Positions 42,938 to 50,978 of a DNA stretch of 64,000 nt are shown here, one piece after another; position 1 is the stretch's first letter, and each line of letters opens with the position of its first letter. The notes below the pieces were generated by a model. It saw only the letters and a program-made list of their open reading frames with translations. It was not told the origin of the DNA and searched no databases. The DNA is from an uncultured Bifidobacterium sp. (GTDB taxonomy: Bacteria > Bacteroidota > Bacteroidia > UKL13-3). The stretch spans positions 127,933-191,932 of the forward strand of contig CAZGVO010000010.1 of NCBI GenBank assembly GCA_964529175.1, read 5' to 3'. Made by a program: the position numbers and the translations under genes.

Positions 42938-43480
42938 ATGCAAATTACAACTACCCCAATTGAAGGATTGTTAGTTATTCAACCTCAGGTTTTTAACGAC
43001 CCAAGAGGTTACTTTTACGAAAGTTATAATAAAGATAAATTTTTTGCTGCAGGCATAAAATTGGAATTTGTGCAAGACAATCAAAGCCTTTCGCAAAAGG
43101 GAATTGTACGTGGTTTGCACTTTCAAGCACCACCTTTTGATCAAGGTAAATTGGTACGTGTAATTCAAGGTGCGGTTATGGATGTAGCAGTTGATATCAG
43201 AAAAAATTCACCAACTTATGGACAACATTTTTCTATAAAATTATCAGCCGAAAATCAAACCATGTTTTTTATTCCGCCTGGTTTTGCTCATGGATTTGAA
43301 ACATTGGAAGACAATACCATTTTTTTATATAAATGTACCAATGTGTATAACAAAGAAAGTGAAGGCGGATTGCTTTGGAATGATAGTGATTTAGGAATAA
43401 AATGGCATAGCCAAGATCCATTAATAAGTGATAAAGACAAGGTATTACCAACTATAAAAAATTTTGTAAGTCCTTTTTAA
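42938..43480 (+). CDS. rfbC: dTDP-4-dehydrorhamnose 3,5-epimerase
   Basis: F.D.RG.F.E, RGLHFQ, KLVRV..G.V.DVAVDIR, PGFAHGF motifs. Confidence 0.92.
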   Translation: MQITTTPIEGLLVIQPQVFNDPRGYFYESYNKDKFFAAGIKLEFVQDNQSLSQKGIVRGLHFQAPPFDQGKLVRVIQGAVMDVAVDIRKNSPTYGQHFSIKLSAENQTMFFIPPGFAHGFETLEDNTIFLYKCTNVYNKESEGGLLWNDSDLGIKWHSQDPLISDKDKVLPTIKNFVSPF

Positions 43481-43490
43481 ACAGAAAACA

Positions 43491-44423
43491 ATGGAAAATA
43501 TTGATAATGAAGTAATTGCTTTAATTACTAAAATTAAAGAAAAATATAGCGCCCAAGGCCAAAATTTTAAAAGCTATTTAGAGGGTTTATTGTACCAAGA
43601 TTATACTCACTATTGGGATTACATTGCAGTTGATAGCTTGCTTACATTGCAAAAGCCTAAAACTTTAATTCCAGATGAGATGATATTTATAATTTATCAT
43701 CAAATTACTGAATTGTATTTTAAGCTCTCGTTGCACGAAATGGAGCAAATTGCTGCCGCAAAAAATAATATTTCAGTTGAATTTTTTACTGAAAGAGTAA
43801 GGCGCATAAATGCTTATTTTAAAAACTTGGCCAATAGTTTTGAAATAATGGTAGATGGCATGGAGCCTGAACAGTTTTTAAAATTTAGAATGAGTTTATT
43901 ACCTGCTAGTGGTTTTCAAAGTGCACAATACCGCATGATTGAAATGTATGCTACAAGTTTTGATAGATTAGTGGCTAAAGACAAACGCGAAGAATTAAAA
44001 GATAAGAGCATTGAAAAGCAATTTAAATACATTTATTGGCAAGCTGGAGCTACTGAAACTGATACTGGAAACAAAACTTTAACATTAACCAAATTTGAGC
44101 AAAAATATGGTGCAGAGTTATTACGTTTAGCAAATTCAAATAAGGAATGTAACCTTTGGGCAATTTATAAATCGTTGAACGATAGCGATAAACAAAACCA
44201 AGATTTAAGAACTGAACTGCGTAATTTAGATTTAAATGTAAATGTAAATTGGCCTTTAATGCACTATAAATCGGCAGTAAAATATTTACAAAAACCTAAA
44301 GAAGATGTGGCAGCAACAGGTGGAACTAACTGGCAAAAATACTTGCCTCCACGTTTTCAATTAAGAATTTTTTATCCTGAACTTTTTACTCAAGATGAGT
44401 TAACCAATTGGGGTAAGTTTTAA
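43491..44423 (+). CDS. Tryptophan 2,3-dioxygenase family protein
   Basis: YWDYIAVDSLLTLQKP...DEMIFIIYHQITELYFKL matches the TDO helix-B region. Confidence 0.7.
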   Translation: MENIDNEVIALITKIKEKYSAQGQNFKSYLEGLLYQDYTHYWDYIAVDSLLTLQKPKTLIPDEMIFIIYHQITELYFKLSLHEMEQIAAAKNNISVEFFTERVRRINAYFKNLANSFEIMVDGMEPEQFLKFRMSLLPASGFQSAQYRMIEMYATSFDRLVAKDKREELKDKSIEKQFKYIYWQAGATETDTGNKTLTLTKFEQKYGAELLRLANSNKECNLWAIYKSLNDSDKQNQDLRTELRNLDLNVNVNWPLMHYKSAVKYLQKPKEDVAATGGTNWQKYLPPRFQLRIFYPELFTQDELTNWGKF

Positions 44424-44528
44424 AATTAGATAATGAAATAGTACTATTGGATAAAATTGTTTTACAAAGCTATATTTTGTTAAAAACTGTTTTTTACCTT
44501 TATTTGAGCAATTAACCATAAAAAACGT

Positions 44529-44723
44529 ATGCGTAAAATATTTATATCATTATCAATCATAACATTGATAGCAAGTTGCACCAACGATGCACCTTTAAAT
44601 ACACAAGAAGAAAAAACAGTTGATAGCCTTGTAAACAATGAACAAGCAGCTAGCGACTCATTAATGAAAGCCATTCAGGCTGAAATAGGTGCGGATACCT
44701 TGTCTGAAGATAGCGTTGATTAA
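44529..44723 (+). CDS. Small acidic lipoprotein
   Basis: MRKIFISLSIITLIASC signal/lipobox. Preferred over the antisense ORF at 44480-44674. Confidence 0.4.
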   Translation: MRKIFISLSIITLIASCTNDAPLNTQEEKTVDSLVNNEQAASDSLMKAIQAEIGADTLSEDSVD

Positions 44724-44756
44724 TACCACACAACATAAACATCTTATCACACATAA

Positions 44757-45917
44757 GTGACAAATAATAAAGATATAGAATTAAGCATTGTAATGCCATG
44801 CTTAAACGAAGCGGAAACGCTTGCCATTTGTATAACTAAAGCCAATACTTGGTTAAAAAATAACAATGTAAAAGGCGAAGTTGTAATTGGTGATAATGGA
44901 AGTACTGATGGTAGCCAAGAAATAGCCAAAAACCTAGGTGCAAGAGTAATTGATATTCCACGAAAAGGTTACGGGAGTGCTTTAATGGGCGCTATTGAAG
45001 CCAGTTATGGTAAATATGTAATTATGGGCGATAGTGATGATAGTTACGATTTTGGTAACTTAACTCTTTTTGTTCAGGAGCTTCGCAATGGTTACGATTT
45101 GGTAATGGGAAACCGTTTTAAAGGTGGAGTAGCTAAAGGAGCTATGCCTTTTTTACATCGTTACCTTGGTAATCCTGTTTTATCTTTCATAGGACGGTTA
45201 TTTTTTGGAAGCAAAGCAGGCGATTTTCATTGCGGTTTGCGTGGTTTTAGACAAGATATTGTTTCGCTATTAAATTTACAAACAACAGGAATGGAGTTTG
45301 CGAGTGAAATGGTAGTTAAAGCAACCATCTTTAATTTAAAAATTACTGAAGTTCCAACTACACTTTCGCCAGATGGACGCTCTCGCCCGCCACATTTAAG
45401 AACCTGGCGAGATGGATGGAGACACTTAAGATTTTTACTATTATATAGCCCTAAATGGCTGTTTTTAATTCCTGGTATTTTCTTAATGTTATTGGGTTTT
45501 ATTATGGGTGTTTTTATCATTCAAGGTCCTGTTCATTTATTTAATATGTATCTCGATACCAACACATTGCTATATGCAGCTGCATTTGTAATTACTGGTT
45601 TTCAGGCCATAAATTTTGCTATTTTTACCAGAACATACGCCATTCAAGTTGGTTTTTTACCCCAAAACCAAACATTGAATAAAATGTATAAATATGTAAA
45701 CTTAGAATCGGCTTTAATAGTTGGTTTAATAGTTACAGCCTTAGGCATTGGTGGTTCGGTGTATTCGTTAATGATTTGGAATAAAGCCAACTTTGGTTAC
45801 TTGGATTATTCATCCATTTTGAGATTAGTAATACCTTCGGTGGTATGTATTATTATTGGTTTGCAAATTATTTTGTCGAGCTTTTTTTTAAGTGTACTTG
45901 GGGTGAATAAAAAATAG
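44757..45917 (+). CDS. Family 2 glycosyltransferase with C-terminal membrane domain (polyprenyl-phosphate sugar synthase-like, GtrB/ArnC/DPM1 type)
   Basis: IVMPCLNE, DNGSTDGS and GDSDDSYD (DxD) motifs followed by about 4 hydrophobic helices. GTG start immediately after an in-frame TAA. Confidence 0.85.
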   Translation: MTNNKDIELSIVMPCLNEAETLAICITKANTWLKNNNVKGEVVIGDNGSTDGSQEIAKNLGARVIDIPRKGYGSALMGAIEASYGKYVIMGDSDDSYDFGNLTLFVQELRNGYDLVMGNRFKGGVAKGAMPFLHRYLGNPVLSFIGRLFFGSKAGDFHCGLRGFRQDIVSLLNLQTTGMEFASEMVVKATIFNLKITEVPTTLSPDGRSRPPHLRTWRDGWRHLRFLLLYSPKWLFLIPGIFLMLLGFIMGVFIIQGPVHLFNMYLDTNTLLYAAAFVITGFQAINFAIFTRTYAIQVGFLPQNQTLNKMYKYVNLESALIVGLIVTALGIGGSVYSLMIWNKANFGYLDYSSILRLVIPSVVCIIIGLQIILSSFFLSVLGVNKK

Positions 45918-45919
45918 AA

Positions 45920-46471
45920 ATGAAGAAATTAGATATATATCTACAAAACGTAAGAATTTCGAAAGCTGAAAAGTTTATAACAAAAGGAAATAATGTATTA
46001 GACATTGGTACCGATGATGGTGTAATGTTTGAAAAATTAAGCCATTTAATTGATGCTGGTGTAGGAATTGAGCCCACTATTAGTAAAGTTGAAAATAAAG
46101 GCAAATACAAAATAATTCCTGGTTATTTTCCTGAAGCCTTGGCTAACGAAAATGCACCTTTATTTGACGCCATAACCATGCTTGCCGTTTTGGAACATGT
46201 GCCAACTGAAGAACAAAAACAGTTAGGCGAAAATTGTGCTAAATACTTAAAAAAAGGTGGTAAAGTAATTATTACAGTTCCTTCGCCTCAAGTAGATATA
46301 ATACTTGATATATTAGGTAAATTAAAATTAATTGATGGCATGCAATTGCATGAGCATTATGGTTTTAAACCAAGTGATACAGAAAAGATTTTTGCAAAAG
46401 ATTTTAAATTAATTTGTAAAAAAACATTCCAATTTGGGTTAAATAATTTATTTGTTTTCGAAAAAATATAA
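45920..46471 (+). CDS. Class I SAM-dependent methyltransferase
   Basis: Motif I VLDIGTDDG plus the acidic loop and LAVLEHV. 2-nt gaps to both neighbouring genes. Confidence 0.75.
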   Translation: MKKLDIYLQNVRISKAEKFITKGNNVLDIGTDDGVMFEKLSHLIDAGVGIEPTISKVENKGKYKIIPGYFPEALANENAPLFDAITMLAVLEHVPTEEQKQLGENCAKYLKKGGKVIITVPSPQVDIILDILGKLKLIDGMQLHEHYGFKPSDTEKIFAKDFKLICKKTFQFGLNNLFVFEKI

Positions 46472-46473
46472 TA

Positions 46474-49410
46474 ATGGAAAAACAAGCTTTAGTAGAATCA
46501 AGAATATCGTTATTGCTCCCAATTGATGCAAAAAATGGAGGCGATAAAGCCATTGATAGCATTTGCCAATATGTATTAAAAGCAAAGGCTGATATTGAGT
46601 GTTTTTTTATTACTTCAAACAATGATTTGGTAAGTAATAATAAAAATTTTACCGAATTAAGTGGAAAAGGTAAAGCAAATGTATTAAAAGTAAGTGACTC
46701 ATTATCTTCTTCTTACAAAGAGGCTTTGAAATTAGCCACAGGCGCTAATTCTATTTGTATTGAAAACTTTAATGAGCTTAATTTAAACAGCATTATCAAT
46801 TGGGTAAATGCCAATAAGCGAAATATAAAATCAGACGCAATTGGATACACTACCCAAGCAGGTAAAAGTAGCTTTGGCAATAAAATTTATAATGCAAGCT
46901 TGCATTTTTTTACGCCATTGCAATTAAGCCAAACTTCAGTACCGGTTTTAATTGGAAAAACTGACGATTTATTAAACTTATTTTCAACTAAAGTGGTGGC
47001 TGCTACTAGCCATCTTTCTATATTATACACTGCCAAATGCAGTGCAGTAGACATTACAGATTATACAGTTTCGGCTTATAATAAAACACCTGAAAATGGA
47101 ATTGGTGGAGCTTTGTTGTTTCCATTTAAGGCCATTGCTATGCGCTATAATTATTTTGTAACCGCAGCATTAGCAGAGTTAAAAATTCCTAATTTAAACA
47201 GTTTAAAAAATGGCAATCATCCTTTGTTCAGATTGTTGTTTTTTGTACTGGTGTTATTGTCAACTTTTGCCATGCCTTATTTTAGTGGCGATTTTGGAAT
47301 GACTTGGGATGAACGCCAGCATAACGATTATTCTCAATTGTCGTACAAGTGGTTTGCTACTATGGGCGAAGATACTTCGGCTGTAGCTGAACCAAAAGGA
47401 AGCTCCGATTTTATACGTCAAGCGTATCGTTTTTATGGCGAGCAAATCAATACTGTTTCAGCAATTGTTTATACCACTTTTGGTTTACCTCAATTTGAAA
47501 CACGCCATTTTATCAATGCCCTTTATGGTTTAATTGGTGTTATTTTTTGCGGTTTAGCAGTTAAGCAATTAGTTGGTTGGCGAGGAGGCATTTTAGCCAT
47601 TATTTTTATGGTATTTAACCCAGGTTGGTTTGGAAATTCTATGAATAACCCAACTGATATTCCTTTTGCTTCAAGCTTTGCTATGTCGTTGTATTTTTTC
47701 ATTAAAATACTCAAATCAATGCCTAAACCTTCCACAAGTAATTTGGTATGGCTAGGTATGGCTATTGGATTAGGTATTGCTTCGCGTGTGGGTGCTTTCT
47801 TAATTGTGGCTTACTTTGGTTTGTTTTTAGGAATTCAGTTTTTATGGTTATTTAAAAATAAAAATAATCAACCATTTAAATTGATAGGTAGGTACTTTAA
47901 AGTCTTTATAACAGTAGCTGTAGTTGGTTATATTTTAGGAATTTTATTATGGCCTTATGGATTGTTAAATCCATTTAAAAATCCATTTATAGCATTTGCA
48001 AAAGCCAGCGATAACTCGTTTTATACCAATAATGTAGAAATTTTTGAAGGCAAACGTATGTACATGCTTTTACAAGCTCCTTGGTATTATGTAATTAAGT
48101 TTTTATCAATTGGAAATCCTTTATACTTATTGCTTGGTTCTGGTTTATTTGTAATTTTAATAAAATGGATAAAAGACAGTATTGGAATTGGTATGGCCTT
48201 GATGTTATTATTTATGGTGGTTTTCCCAATTGCTTATGTAGAGTATTCAAATATCAATTATTATAACGGATGGCGCCATTATTTATTCATTGTACCTTCA
48301 ATGGTAACTTTGGCTGCTGTGGCTTTTGATTACTTGCTAGGAAATAATAATAAAATTGTTCAATATGTTTCTATAGCTGTTTTAGTAGGACTATTTGTTA
48401 AACCAACTTATTGGTTTATAAAAAATCATCCAAACCAATATGTTTATTTTAACGAACTGGTAGGAGGAATAAATGGAGCATATGGAAATTACGAAACTGA
48501 TTATTATTCTAATTCATGCAGGGCTGCAGGCGAATGGATTGCAAAGCAAGAACCTAATAAAAAATTATTAGTTTGTATAAACAATGAGCCTTTAACAGCT
48601 TCGTATTATGCCAATAAAATAAATTCAAATATTCAATTCCAATGGGTTAGAGAATATGAAGAACAAAAACCTGAATGGGATTATTTGATTTTAACTACTA
48701 GAACATATTCAAAAAATGAATTGTTAAATGGTGCATTTCCTCCAAAAGGAACTGTGTTTACTGTGATGGCAGATGATGTGCCTTTAGCAGCCGTTGTAAA
48801 ACGTGAGGTTAACTACATGCCACTTGGTTATAAAGCTATTGATGCTAAAAGGTTTGACTCTGCTGTAGCCTATTTTAACCAAGCCGTGTTATGGGAGCCA
48901 AAAAGCGAAGAAGCCAATAGAATGTACGGTTTTGCATTGATGTTAAATAATCAATTTGATTTGGCTGAAAAAGCATTTGATAAATCAATTGAAATTTTCC
49001 CCGAAAATTATACTGCTTACGCCAATAAAGGTTTACTTTATTTTAACTTAAAACAATACCAAAAATGTATTGATGCATGTGTGAAAGCCACTACTTATAA
49101 AAATAATATTACCGAAGCGTATTATTATTCGGCATTGGCTTATTTAAACATGAACGATTATAATGGTGCTATTGATAGACTTGAAACGGCTTTAAAATAC
49201 AATGGACAATCGCCTGAAATATTTTATTATCTAGGAAAATCGTACGAAATGGTTAAAAACAATACCAAAGCAGCTTCTAATTACGAATATTGCTTAGGTA
49301 TGAATCCTAATTTTAAACAAGCTTGGTTCGATTTAGCTAATCAATATAAAATATTAGGTAAAAACGATGGTTACGACTTCTGTATGCAAAAATTCAATGC
49401 GCTTCCTTAG
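46474..49410 (+). CDS. Fusion protein: degenerate GT-A-like N-domain + GT-C (PMT/ArnT-like, GT39/GT83-type) membrane glycosyltransferase + C-terminal TPR domain
   Basis: Residues 1-245 are soluble and GT2-like with the acidic motifs lost. There are at least 10 TM helices from about 47220, with W-D-E (47305-47313) right after TM1. About 5 TPR repeats occupy about 48830-49380. Confidence 0.75.
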   Translation: MEKQALVESRISLLLPIDAKNGGDKAIDSICQYVLKAKADIECFFITSNNDLVSNNKNFTELSGKGKANVLKVSDSLSSSYKEALKLATGANSICIENFNELNLNSIINWVNANKRNIKSDAIGYTTQAGKSSFGNKIYNASLHFFTPLQLSQTSVPVLIGKTDDLLNLFSTKVVAATSHLSILYTAKCSAVDITDYTVSAYNKTPENGIGGALLFPFKAIAMRYNYFVTAALAELKIPNLNSLKNGNHPLFRLLFFVLVLLSTFAMPYFSGDFGMTWDERQHNDYSQLSYKWFATMGEDTSAVAEPKGSSDFIRQAYRFYGEQINTVSAIVYTTFGLPQFETRHFINALYGLIGVIFCGLAVKQLVGWRGGILAIIFMVFNPGWFGNSMNNPTDIPFASSFAMSLYFFIKILKSMPKPSTSNLVWLGMAIGLGIASRVGAFLIVAYFGLFLGIQFLWLFKNKNNQPFKLIGRYFKVFITVAVVGYILGILLWPYGLLNPFKNPFIAFAKASDNSFYTNNVEIFEGKRMYMLLQAPWYYVIKFLSIGNPLYLLLGSGLFVILIKWIKDSIGIGMALMLLFMVVFPIAYVEYSNINYYNGWRHYLFIVPSMVTLAAVAFDYLLGNNNKIVQYVSIAVLVGLFVKPTYWFIKNHPNQYVYFNELVGGINGAYGNYETDYYSNSCRAAGEWIAKQEPNKKLLVCINNEPLTASYYANKINSNIQFQWVREYEEQKPEWDYLILTTRTYSKNELLNGAFPPKGTVFTVMADDVPLAAVVKREVNYMPLGYKAIDAKRFDSAVAYFNQAVLWEPKSEEANRMYGFALMLNNQFDLAEKAFDKSIEIFPENYTAYANKGLLYFNLKQYQKCIDACVKATTYKNNITEAYYYSALAYLNMNDYNGAIDRLETALKYNGQSPEIFYYLGKSYEMVKNNTKAASNYEYCLGMNPNFKQAWFDLANQYKILGKNDGYDFCMQKFNALP

Positions 49411-49509
49411 TGCATTGAATTTTAGTATTTTGTAATTTGATTATTGAAATAAATTACTTTAACTCATTGATAAAATAAAACATTTTACATAAAAATAAGT
49501 TATATAAAT

Positions 49510-49896
49510 ATGCCCGTAGCTATTTCTAATGATGTTCAAATTAGTGTTGAAACTTATTACCAAAACGATAAGTTAAACAATATGGATGGAAACTATATGT
49601 TTGCTTATAGAATTACCATTGAAAATAAGGGCGAATACACTTTAAAATTATTGCGCAGACATTGGGATATAACCGATGCCGCTAATGGTTTAAGCGAAGT
49701 AGATGGTGACGGTGTGGTTGGTTTTCAACCGGTATTAGAACCTAACGAAAAATATACTTATGTATCGGGGTGTGCCCTTGAAAGTGAGTTTGGTAAAATG
49801 AGTGGTTATTATATTATGCAACGCCAATTTGATGGCAAGGAATTGAAAGTAGAAATACCAGAATTTCAATTAATAGTTCCATTTAAAAATAACTAG
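49510..49896 (+). CDS. apaG: ApaG (DUF525) protein
   Basis: 128 aa. F.Y.I.IEN.G.....LL.RHW.ITDA.G....V.G.GVVG.QP.L.P pattern. Confidence 0.85.
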   Translation: MPVAISNDVQISVETYYQNDKLNNMDGNYMFAYRITIENKGEYTLKLLRRHWDITDAANGLSEVDGDGVVGFQPVLEPNEKYTYVSGCALESEFGKMSGYYIMQRQFDGKELKVEIPEFQLIVPFKNN

Positions 49897-50978
49897 TATT
49901 TATAAATAATCATAGTGCCTGGATTTGGCATTATGTATTTACTTTCCCAATTAAAATTTGCCTCTTCGGAGGCTTTTATTTTTTTATAAAAGTAGTTGAA
50001 GTTGGTAGCCCTAACTGTTTTTATTTTTTTAGGAGCATAAGGTTTAAAAAAATCTTCCCAATGCGTTAATATTACTTTTTTAGGCTTAATTTGATTAATT
50101 AAATTTTGCGGATAGCAATTAGTAAAATTAGCTGATGCTACTTGGAGCAAAGCAATATCCACGCCATGTTCAAGTAGTAATTCATCATATAATTTACCAT
50201 CATTTATGGCGCAGCCTGCACCTTTTAAAAGCAACCTAAGGGTTATTGAATCGTTACTCAAAATATCTACCAAATACGCAAAAGTGTTTCCATCTTTAAA
50301 TTGGCCTGCTTTAACTTTCTGATTGGTGCTTGTATAATTTTTAAAATAGTTACTATCGCACTGGCCATGCATAAAATTAATATTTGCTATATGTGGAGCA
50401 TGTACCGAAGGCAACACCAATACGCGCATTTCGTTACTTACTTTTATCCATTTTGGCTTAGTTTTAGGTTTATAAACAAAACTATCTTGGTTTATAAATG
50501 GATTATTTTGAATAAAATTTTGAATAACTGTTTGTGCTGACTTATCTCCGTATATTTTAGTTGTATTACTCACCAGTTTATTTTCTAATAAATAACTTAA
50601 GTCAAATAAATGGTCGTAATGTGAATGAGAAATAAAAATGCTATTGATTGACTCATAATTATTACCAAATCTATTTAAAAAATAAGTTCCTTTATCAAAG
50701 TATTTTTGATTGAATTTTATTTTTCCAAAGGCCACCTTATAACCTCTGGCATTTGAAAAAAATGGATCAAATAAAATGGCATCTTTTCCATGTTTTATAA
50801 AAATATTTCCACAACCCAAATATTGGATATTTAATTGATTGTCAGTATTTTGTGATATATTGCTTTCTGTTAAAGTATCTGTACTATAAATGCCCAATTT
50901 TTCATATTTTTTGGGATAATGAGGAACTGAACACGAAAACACAATAAAAATAGTGAATATTAAAAAGCTAAATTTCAT
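49893..50978 (-). CDS. MBL-fold metallo-hydrolase lipoprotein
   Basis: Signal peptide plus lipobox (IVFSC) and the HSHYDH zinc motif. Confidence 0.75.
   Translation of the reverse strand: MKFSFLIFTIFIVFSCSVPHYPKKYEKLGIYSTDTLTESNISQNTDNQLNIQYLGCGNIFIKHGKDAILFDPFFSNARGYKVAFGKIKFNQKYFDKGTYFLNRFGNNYESINSIFISHSHYDHLFDLSYLLENKLVSNTTKIYGDKSAQTVIQNFIQNNPFINQDSFVYKPKTKPKWIKVSNEMRVLVLPSVHAPHIANINFMHGQCDSNYFKNYTSTNQKVKAGQFKDGNTFAYLVDILSNDSITLRLLLKGAGCAINDGKLYDELLLEHGVDIALLQVASANFTNCYPQNLINQIKPKKVILTHWEDFFKPYAPKKIKTVRATNFNYFYKKIKASEEANFNWESKYIMPNPGTMIIYKY

Follow-up and report, generated by a model that had tools for sequence, protein, structure and literature searches.

Three genes at the locus

The window analysed here, a stretch of 64,000 nucleotides from contig CAZGVO010000010.1 whose numbering is used throughout, has a G+C content of 32% and carries a cluster of three genes predicted to glycosylate targets outside the cytoplasm. 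The locus has its nearest relatives in metagenome-assembled genomes (MAGs) of uncultured freshwater Bacteroidota; loci of relatives are denoted by L-numbers and members of the protein family by P-numbers. An earlier note on this DNA had described three co-directional open reading frames (ORFs), and that description stands in its coordinates, its strand, the gaps of two nucleotides each (45918-19 and 46472-73) and the position of the ORF1 start codon directly 3' of a TAA at 44754-56. The two-nucleotide spacing suggests co-translation, and the three ORFs (Table 1) form one real, conserved operon.

The translation of ORF1 contains the GT2 motifs IVMPCLNE, DNGSTDGS and GDSDDSYD and matches PF00535 in Pfam at 1.3e-25. 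Its catalytic domain spans about residues 1-226 and is followed by four hydrophobic transmembrane (TM) helices at 238-380, in which no Pfam match, to GtrA or any other family, was obtained at E<=10. The top NCBIfam match is AglJ (2e-36; 126 bits against an equivalog cutoff of 325), followed by a dolichyl-phosphate hexose transferase, PpgS and ArnC, all far under their cutoffs, and the top matches among PDB entries are the Pyrococcus furiosus DPMS (5mlz, 2e-12, residues 7-262) and ArnC (1e-9, residues 8-289). Across 30 homologues the motifs DNGSTD, DSDD and DFHCGLRGF are kept. With its DSDD motif, membrane anchor and solved relatives, ORF1 falls in the DPMS/GtrB/ArnC/AglJ-type group of polyprenyl-phosphate GT2 enzymes, as the earlier note had proposed from the motifs and about four C-terminal helices. 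On account of these matches, helices and conserved motifs, ORF1 is predicted to be a polyprenyl-phosphate monosaccharide synthase; it reaches no equivalog cutoff.

The identification of ORF2 as a small S-adenosylmethionine (SAM)-dependent methyltransferase is likewise confirmed by a Pfam match to Methyltransf_23 at 3e-11. The SAM-methyltransferase core is kept in 32 homologues, a weak resemblance to UbiG and to phosphoethanolamine methyltransferases is seen, and no signal peptide was seen in the N-terminal sequence. No NCBIfam equivalog was obtained for any component of the module.

Architecture of ORF3

The third protein combines a GT-C membrane core with tetratricopeptide repeats (TPRs), and the latter initially obscured the former. 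Compared with PDB sequences, full-length ORF3 and its family profile returned TPR proteins only, and TPR matches also dominated a Foldseek search with the full-length AlphaFold model, which was built from 38 homologues (predicted local distance difference test, pLDDT, 83.7; predicted TM-score, pTM, 0.76). Since these matches swamped the full-length searches, a core-only alignment and an AF2 model of residues 240-780 (pTM 0.81) were made and compared with the PDB by Foldseek. The top 35 matches are all GT-C enzymes, with TM-scores of 0.45-0.51; they are led by STT3A (2e-8) and ArnT (3e-8), with PglB (9e-6), Pmt4 (2.5e-4) and Pmt1/2 (8e-3) behind, and yeast STT3, AglB, AftA/B/D, DPY19 and ALG9/12 also appear, while unrelated transporters are found only at E>0.08 and with low probability. 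Residues 344-456 score 32.2 bits in the Pfam family PMT_2 (PF13231, ArnT-like GT83 and relatives), over its gathering score of 26.1. Membership of the ArnT family by sequence was considered and set aside, as the core profile found ArnT alone among PDB sequences (5ezm), at a value too weak for this purpose (E=0.065). Because all of the top 35 core-only matches are GT-C enzymes, the modelled core is assigned the GT-C fold that the earlier note had proposed, and it is nearer to STT3 and ArnT than to PMT.

The putative active site can be traced on this model. The first TM helix (residues 250-271) is followed by a long loop in which W278-D279-E280 lies six residues past the helix; the motif is shared by all 38 family members compared, and the D-E pair does not vary in the intact fusions described below either. 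Acidic residues in the first extracytoplasmic loop after TM1 are a GT-C trait, and the position agrees with that of D55/E56 in ArnT and D77/E78 in Pmt1 as described in PMC7801869, a correspondence of position and not of aligned residues. The earlier note had picked out this W-D-E motif directly after TM1 and had likened its place to that of the catalytic acidic pair of PMT/ArnT-type enzymes. The other invariant residues, NNPTD395, R438 and W600-R601-H602, lie with D279/E280 on the predicted periplasmic face, and W600-R601-H602 precedes TM10, in agreement with the conserved arginine of TMTC and STT3 (PMC7801869).

Lysines and arginines cluster at the cytoplasmic helix ends of the core, and the model points to a topology with the N-terminus inside, 11 TM helices and the C-terminus outside. 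Starting from a cytoplasmic, GT2-derived N-terminal domain, 11 helices would place the alpha/beta and TPR domains in the periplasm, the topology check thus giving the TPRs the location that the earlier note had asked about. Strong matches to Pfam TPR families extend over residues 777-975, and the region is modelled as 12 helices, or six repeats; of the architecture first described, the count of at least 10 helices holds and that of about five repeats is corrected. The alpha/beta domain is the most conserved part of ORF3, with many invariant residues and an identity of 87-93% in the four closer relatives compared and of 70% in the most distant.

By contrast, the N-terminal domain (N-domain) evolves faster than any other part in all comparisons, with an identity of 27-72% where the core has 61-91%. 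In the window protein it has no match to PF00535, whereas relatives that are 55-56% identical score 31 bits, over the gathering score of 23.3, and the distant members P0124, P0158 and P0223 give full-length matches of 1e-24 to 1e-26. P0124 and P0158 carry all the GT2 motifs (VDDGSxD, DSD/DTD, TDxQCGFKLYP and HDVE); in P0223, DAD and the last two motifs are present and the first reads VDDASKD. No conserved DXD is found in the N-domains of the window clade, and the DXD of ORF1 aligns, with weak statistics, opposite IENFNE. The domain appears from these comparisons to be a decayed GT2, a catalytically dead relic of the GT2 active in related fusions, and it is the PF00535 matches of the relatives, rather than the profile alignment with the ORF1 family considered below, that argue for this origin. 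The degenerate GT2-like domain of the earlier note is thus upheld through its relatives, although the window protein itself has no Pfam match to show for it. Such a pseudo-GT2 would be a clean case of an enzyme domain retained after its catalytic residues were lost.

Table 1. Features of the three-gene locus and its immediate flanks (window numbering)
Feature	Position	Strand	Description	Basis
ORF1	44757-45917	+	386 amino acids, GTG start; DPMS/AglJ/ArnC-type GT2 (predicted polyprenyl-phosphate glycosyltransferase)	
ORF2	45920-46471	+	183 amino acids; predicted cytoplasmic class-I SAM-dependent methyltransferase	
ORF3	46474-49410	+	978 amino acids; predicted multidomain GT-C glycosyltransferase	
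ORF3 residues 1-236	46474-47181	+	Predicted cytoplasmic GT-A-fold domain, GT2-derived, lacking DXD (pseudo-enzyme)	Beta/alpha fold, pLDDT about 88
ORF3 residues 250-651	47221-48426	+	Predicted GT-C membrane core, 11 helices	Core-only Foldseek, PMT_2, loop charges
W278-D279-E280	47305-47313	+	First periplasmic loop, putative catalytic acidic pair	Invariance, position
ORF3 residues 655-780	48436-48813	+	Predicted periplasmic alpha/beta domain	AlphaFold model
ORF3 residues 781-976	48814-49401	+	Six TPR repeats, predicted periplasmic	Pfam TPR families, PDB TPR matches, model
Small lipoprotein ORF	44529-44723	+	64 amino acids; ends 33 nt before ORF1; conserved left flank	
Terminator-like hairpin	49389-49423	+	15-bp stem and T-rich tail; overlaps ORF3 stop codon	Consensus match

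Family, gene linkage and exchange

Judged by profile searches, ORF3 belongs to a large unnamed bacterial enzyme family. An exhaustive core-profile search, with clusters counted at 50% identity, gave 1,631 representative clusters at E<=1e-30 and 7,748 at the looser threshold of E<=1e-3, and their labels are generic only ('glycosyltransferase', 'TPR repeat protein', 'hypothetical protein' and a truncated UniRef entry that starts 'dolichyl-phosphate be...'). In the set of the 145 best representatives with a full core, an N-domain of at least 170 amino acids is present in 81 and absent in 62, and a C-terminal extension of TPR size is present in 132. All three GT2 motifs were found in seven and some motifs in five of the 81 N-domains scored, which are those in the best 150 representatives. 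Intact GT2::GT-C::TPR fusions exist within the family; this subfamily comprises 489 clusters at E<=1e-50. Among its carriers are Nemorincola caseinilytica, which is a cultured species, one MAG of Taibaiella, MAGs of Cytophagales and a complete genome whose deposited name is Hyphobacterium sp. CCMP332. The named carriers of the family at large, mostly MAGs, are Chitinophagales, Cytophagales and one unclassified 'Bacteroidales bacterium', with no Bacteroides, Flavobacterium or Porphyromonas among them. Relatives of ORF3 at 57-92% identity also occur in MAGs labelled Methylacidiphilales, Bifidobacterium and Vulcanococcus (L002, L004 and L024), labels that probably reflect binning or labelling errors and not occurrence across phyla.

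Gene linkage was surveyed in 37 loci, namely the window and 36 loci of reference genomes, 29 of the latter with enough upstream DNA. The order GT2, methyltransferase, GT-C is kept in 28 of these 29, so that the arrangement is not due to chance and the conservation as a block anticipated by the earlier note is found; L025 (6817-10943), where the GT2 adjoins the GT-C gene directly and the intervening methyltransferase is missing, is the sole full-length relative with upstream DNA to differ in this way. The trio occurs in at least four unrelated genomic contexts, with housekeeping neighbours (an HflX-like GTPase, a helix-turn-helix protein, DUF218 and an AMP-binding enzyme), and no candidate acceptor gene travels with it in the 37 loci.

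A second packaging is seen in the fusions. Seven with a readable context were sampled: one has partial motifs, and the other six have either a strong full-length PF00535 match or the complete set of three GT2 motifs. A methyltransferase gene of the Methyltransf_23 type abuts five of them (L038, L044, L045/46, L047 and L048, not L039 and L049), and in no case does a separate GT2 lie next to the fusion. Where the N-domain is degenerate, that is in the window clade, a separate GT2 does occur in the cluster, and so it does in L040, the one well-resolved member devoid of an N-domain. This complementarity would be explained if ORF1 supplies in trans the activity that the N-domain of ORF3 appears to have lost. 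Seen in both packagings, the conserved functional unit is a GT2 activity, a methyltransferase and a GT-C/TPR protein, encoded by two or three genes. The methyltransferase is an ancestral core component of this module, a point absent from the earlier note. The methyltransferases of the family sort into three types; ORF2 and its counterpart in L005 make up type C, the L005 enzyme being weakly linked to type B (E=8e-8), and no BLAST similarity was obtained between ORF2 and the methyltransferase of L038.

Two relatives are of interest in their own right. In Nemorincola caseinilytica (L048, 3442-8021), the intact fusion has a type-B methyltransferase 10 nt upstream and a divergent type-A methyltransferase adjoining, which hints at two methylation steps. 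The cluster of L040 (16-7919) consists of a GT2, a GFO/IDH/MocA oxidoreductase, a hexapeptide acyltransferase, the GT-C-TPR gene, a DegT, an epimerase/dehydratase and a second DegT; this Arn-like amino-sugar gene content suggests that clades of the family may transfer differing sugars.

It could be supposed that the genes are adjacent yet uncoupled, with ORF1 serving another pathway and ORF2 methylating some lipid or small molecule outside the relay. The nearest named relatives of ORF2, UbiG and phosphoethanolamine-methyltransferase-like proteins with weak scores, and the divergence of the methyltransferase types would agree with this. Set against it are the recurrence of the linkage over deep divergence, in two packagings (fusion with methyltransferase; GT2, methyltransferase and GT-C) and in many unrelated contexts, and the suggestion of co-translation from the two-nucleotide spacing, which together make it hardly credible.

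Among close relatives the module is mosaic. In L005, L006 and L028 the upstream genes of the window recur with protein identities of 90-97%, but the GT2 there is short, lacks TM helices and is 26% identical to ORF1, and the methyltransferase is only 33% identical to ORF2. A DNA identity profile of window positions 44700-49410 against L005 (6590-10961) runs at mostly 83-94%, with one interval at 73%, in the flank and intergenic region up to about 44700, falls to 23-39% over ORF1, and rises through 47-58% over ORF2 and the ORF3 N-domain and 65-73% over the ORF3 core to 72-85% at 48451-49350 (periplasmic domain and TPRs); past the ORF3 stop, synteny is lost. Given a left breakpoint that is sharp and lies where ORF1 starts, and the gradual recovery toward the 3' end of ORF3, the donor-making half (GT2 and methyltransferase) and the pseudo-GT2 domain or 5' part of ORF3 are, by sequence comparison, exchanged between close relatives. 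The GT2 and methyltransferase of L005 are non-orthologous and precede the same GT-C gene, so that the scheme of the relay is preserved. A clean recombination step inside ORF3 was considered and rejected, the low protein identity of the N-domain being a matter of general relaxed constraint.

The left flank contributes one further gene, a small ORF under the 80-amino-acid minimum of the first ORF listing. Its product has a lipoprotein signal peptide (MRKIFISLSIITLIAS, before the C) and an acidic mature part of 47 amino acids with four D-(S/T)-(L/V) motifs, which match the Bacteroidota O-glycosylation sequon (shuffle P=2e-4). The lipoprotein and its motifs are kept in seven genomes of the window clade, including L001, L003, L004, L005, L006 and L028, and no counterpart was seen 5' of the trio in other clades. 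The gene belongs to the flank and not to the exchanged module; any tie between the two is speculative.

This lipoprotein bears on whether ORF3 could be the missing initiator of general protein O-glycosylation in Bacteroidota, that is, the O-mannosyltransferase or oligosaccharyltransferase (OTase) adding the reducing-end hexose to D(S/T)X sequons phylum-wide. The OTase, ligase and core machinery of that system are still unidentified, and its core is mannose-based and has been likened to eukaryotic O-mannosylation (PMC12871550). ORF3 would fill this gap, and it couples a PMT_2-type GT-C with a polyprenyl-phosphate hexose synthase; methylation is frequent in Bacteroidota O-glycans, and the sequon-rich lipoprotein gene lies directly upstream of ORF1. 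The fit is nevertheless poor. The named carriers seen belong to the groups given above and include none of the three model genera, the type of donor synthase differs between genomes with about 90%-identical flanks, other family members use amino-sugar clusters, cassette exchange is unexpected of a conserved housekeeping function, and the lipoprotein gene lies outside the exchanged module. The suggestion of the earlier note that ORF3 might be this transferase is accordingly not sustained, and we regard it as very unlikely.

The remaining features of the region are less telling. The hairpin after ORF3 suggests a possible terminator, a consensus match at background level (four terminator-like hairpins observed in the region against 3.9 expected). 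A sigma-70 promoter scan was likewise at background, with 30 observed against 28.5 expected; the sigma-70 consensus fits Bacteroidota poorly. An Rfam scan of 44300-49700 gave no match. Downstream, the 3' ends of an ApaG-like gene (49510-49896, +) and of a convergent ORF of 361 amino acids (49893-50978, -) share 4 nt (49893-49896). Upstream, a lone rmlC gene (dTDP-4-dehydrorhamnose 3,5-epimerase, 238 bits), with no further rml genes nearby, lies within 42938-44423; it is flanked on one side by a HerA-like ATPase gene and on the other by a divergently oriented gene resembling tryptophan 2,3-dioxygenase (99 bits, with a cutoff of 391). Only in the window clade does this block accompany the trio.

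A probable lipid-carrier relay and its acceptor

Taken together, the genes and the structural model make it likely that the trio is a self-contained relay, which passes a (probably methylated) sugar over the inner membrane on a lipid carrier to an extracytoplasmic target. ORF1 would act at the cytoplasmic face, where it loads polyprenyl (undecaprenyl) phosphate with a single sugar taken from a nucleotide sugar. ORF2 would methylate the sugar in the cytoplasm, most likely as the lipid-linked intermediate and otherwise as the nucleotide sugar; a precedent is the Arn pathway, which also modifies a lipid-linked sugar before its transfer. After translocation, the periplasmic GT-C site of ORF3 (D279/E280, NNPTD395, R438 and R601) would glycosylate the acceptor from the lipid-phosphate-sugar, with the alpha/beta and TPR domains helping to bind or position it. 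The N-domain now probably has a scaffolding role in the cytoplasm, where it may dock ORF1 and ORF2. The analysis itself shows the identities of the domains, the GT-C fold, the predicted topology, the linkage of the genes, the intact fusions and the recurring methyltransferase partner, whereas the sequence of reactions, the substrate of methylation, the sugar and the acceptor are inferred.

Several observations weigh against the relay or parts of it. In none of the 37 loci is a flippase gene of the GtrA, ArnE/F or MATE type linked to the trio in any context. The TM-scores of the core against solved GT-C structures are moderate (0.45-0.51), and an hhalign comparison of the N-domain with the ORF1 family is co-linear yet weak (E=0.011, probability 3.8%). 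The methyltransferases linked to the GT-C gene fall into three divergent types, and none adjoins in L025, L039 and L049. Finally, P0099, a member with no N-domain (L041/L042), sits in an operon that has no GT2, a divergent GT2 lying two genes upstream; the same operon has no methyltransferase either.

It is instructive to set the module beside systems of known function. Three-component periplasmic glycosylation systems (GtrA/GtrB/Gtr* for O-antigen glucosylation, CsbB/GtcA/YfhO, GtrB/PgtC2 and the GT136 pentofuranose systems) likewise pair a GT2 polyprenyl-phosphate synthase with a GT-C that moves a single sugar outside the cytoplasm (PMC11127046, PMC12041528). They differ from the trio, which has no linked gene for a GtrA (PF04138), MATE or SMR flippase in the 37 loci, has a methyltransferase as a core partner, and has a GT-C bearing a (pseudo)GT2, a periplasmic alpha/beta domain and TPRs; moreover, the ancestral form here is a synthase and transferase in one polypeptide. 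In the Arn pathway too, which serves the aminoarabinose modification of lipid A, a GT2 loads the carrier, the ArnD deformylase (to be compared with the methyltransferase here) alters the lipid-linked sugar on the cytoplasmic side, and a PMT_2-class GT-C carries out the transfer, and ArnT and ArnC are among the best structural and sequence matches of ORF3 and ORF1. However, the similarity to ArnT is weak (E=0.065, with no NCBIfam ArnT match at E<=0.01), no ArnA, ArnB, ArnD, ArnE or ArnF genes are present in the window, and ArnT lacks the TPRs and N-domain of ORF3.

The eukaryotic TMTC1-4 proteins (GT105) share with ORF3 a GT-C followed by extracytoplasmic TPRs, an acidic pair after TM1, an arginine before TM10 and a GT2-made dolichyl-phosphate-sugar donor (PMC7801869). 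ORF3, on the other hand, has no PF08409 (DUF1736) match at E<=0.01, carries DE instead of DD, and has an extra periplasmic domain of 125 amino acids between core and TPRs as well as the GT2-derived N-domain. The TMTC-like label of the earlier note thus holds for domain composition and architecture and fails on the missing PF08409, the structural proximity of STT3 and ArnT over PMT and the two extra domains; the resemblance is one of architecture, not orthology. With regard to PMT/POMT (GT39), the window ORF3 has no PF02366 or MIR match, Pmt structures rank under STT3 and ArnT, and PF02366 is matched by some relatives, mostly weakly. STT3 (GT66) gives the best PDB fold similarity to the core, but ORF3 has no PF02516 match and no WWDYG motif, and its partner GT2 is of the type that makes a monophosphate-linked monosaccharide, as opposed to the pyrophosphate-linked oligosaccharide donor of STT3/PglB/AglB. 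By the profile and motif tests run, ORF3 therefore lies outside the TMTC, PMT, ArnT and STT3 families. The archaeal Agl N-glycosylation pathway of Haloferax volcanii supplies the top curated match of ORF1, the dolichyl-phosphate-hexose GT2 AglJ, and in AglP an earlier example of a SAM methyltransferase whose substrate is a lipid-linked sugar; here, though, the AglJ score is far under its cutoff, the host is bacterial and the transferase is not AglB/STT3. The core thus lies within GT-C, close homologues did not turn out to be well-characterised ArnT-like lipid A modifiers, and the genes co-occur, the points on which the earlier note had made its proposal turn. No characterised bacterial GT-C with TPRs, GT2::GT-C fusion or such system was found in the literature searched, whose coverage was incomplete.

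As to the acceptor, a protein and an envelope glycan or lipid stand level, each a little short of an even chance, with a small share left for anything else. The TPRs, the analogy with TMTC and the glucosylation of proteins by streptococcal GtrB/PgtC2 (PMC12041528) suggest that a protein is a plausible acceptor. A modifier of envelope glycans or lipids would use the same relay, with lipopolysaccharide (LPS), lipid A, O-antigen, capsule or another glycolipid as the acceptor (as in Arn, Gtr, Lgm and Flm) and with the TPRs as a scaffold toward export or assembly machinery and not as a selector of protein substrates; periplasmic TPRs are also found in the polysaccharide export scaffolds BcsC, PgaA and AlgK. 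This alternative, to which we give rather less than an even chance, gains from ArnT being the sole sequence-level PDB match (E=0.065) and joint-best by fold, from the Arn-like amino-sugar cluster of L040, and from the swapping of donor genes between near-identical genomes, which is typical of surface-antigen loci. It loses from the lack of LPS or O-antigen genes linked to the trio in any of the four contexts and from the lack of a match to any NCBIfam ArnT model, and we know of no characterised lipid A or O-antigen GT-C modifier with TPRs. A more far-reaching version of the protein alternative can be formulated, in which the family would be to bacteria what TMTC is to eukaryotes, an O-(methyl)hexosyltransferase acting on proteins, with TPRs that select periplasmic or lipoprotein substrates, the 64-amino-acid lipoprotein among them. 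Its ancestral fusion would charge the carrier in the cytoplasm, pass the donor over the membrane with no dedicated flippase and use it in the periplasm; as a whole this version appears improbable.

A relay of a GT2 and a GT-C is a known route for glycosylating extracytoplasmic targets. What seems to be new with respect to the literature searched is the fused synthase-transferase or the retained dead synthase, the constant methyltransferase partner and the periplasmic TPRs on nearly all members. The family is testable in cultured Chitinophagales and Cytophagales, such as Nemorincola caseinilytica. If the acceptor is a protein, the module would represent a new bacterial O-glycosylation route bearing on the O-mannosylation-like machinery of Bacteroidota; if it is an envelope glycan, the cassette exchange among near-identical freshwater genomes would point to a surface-variation locus.

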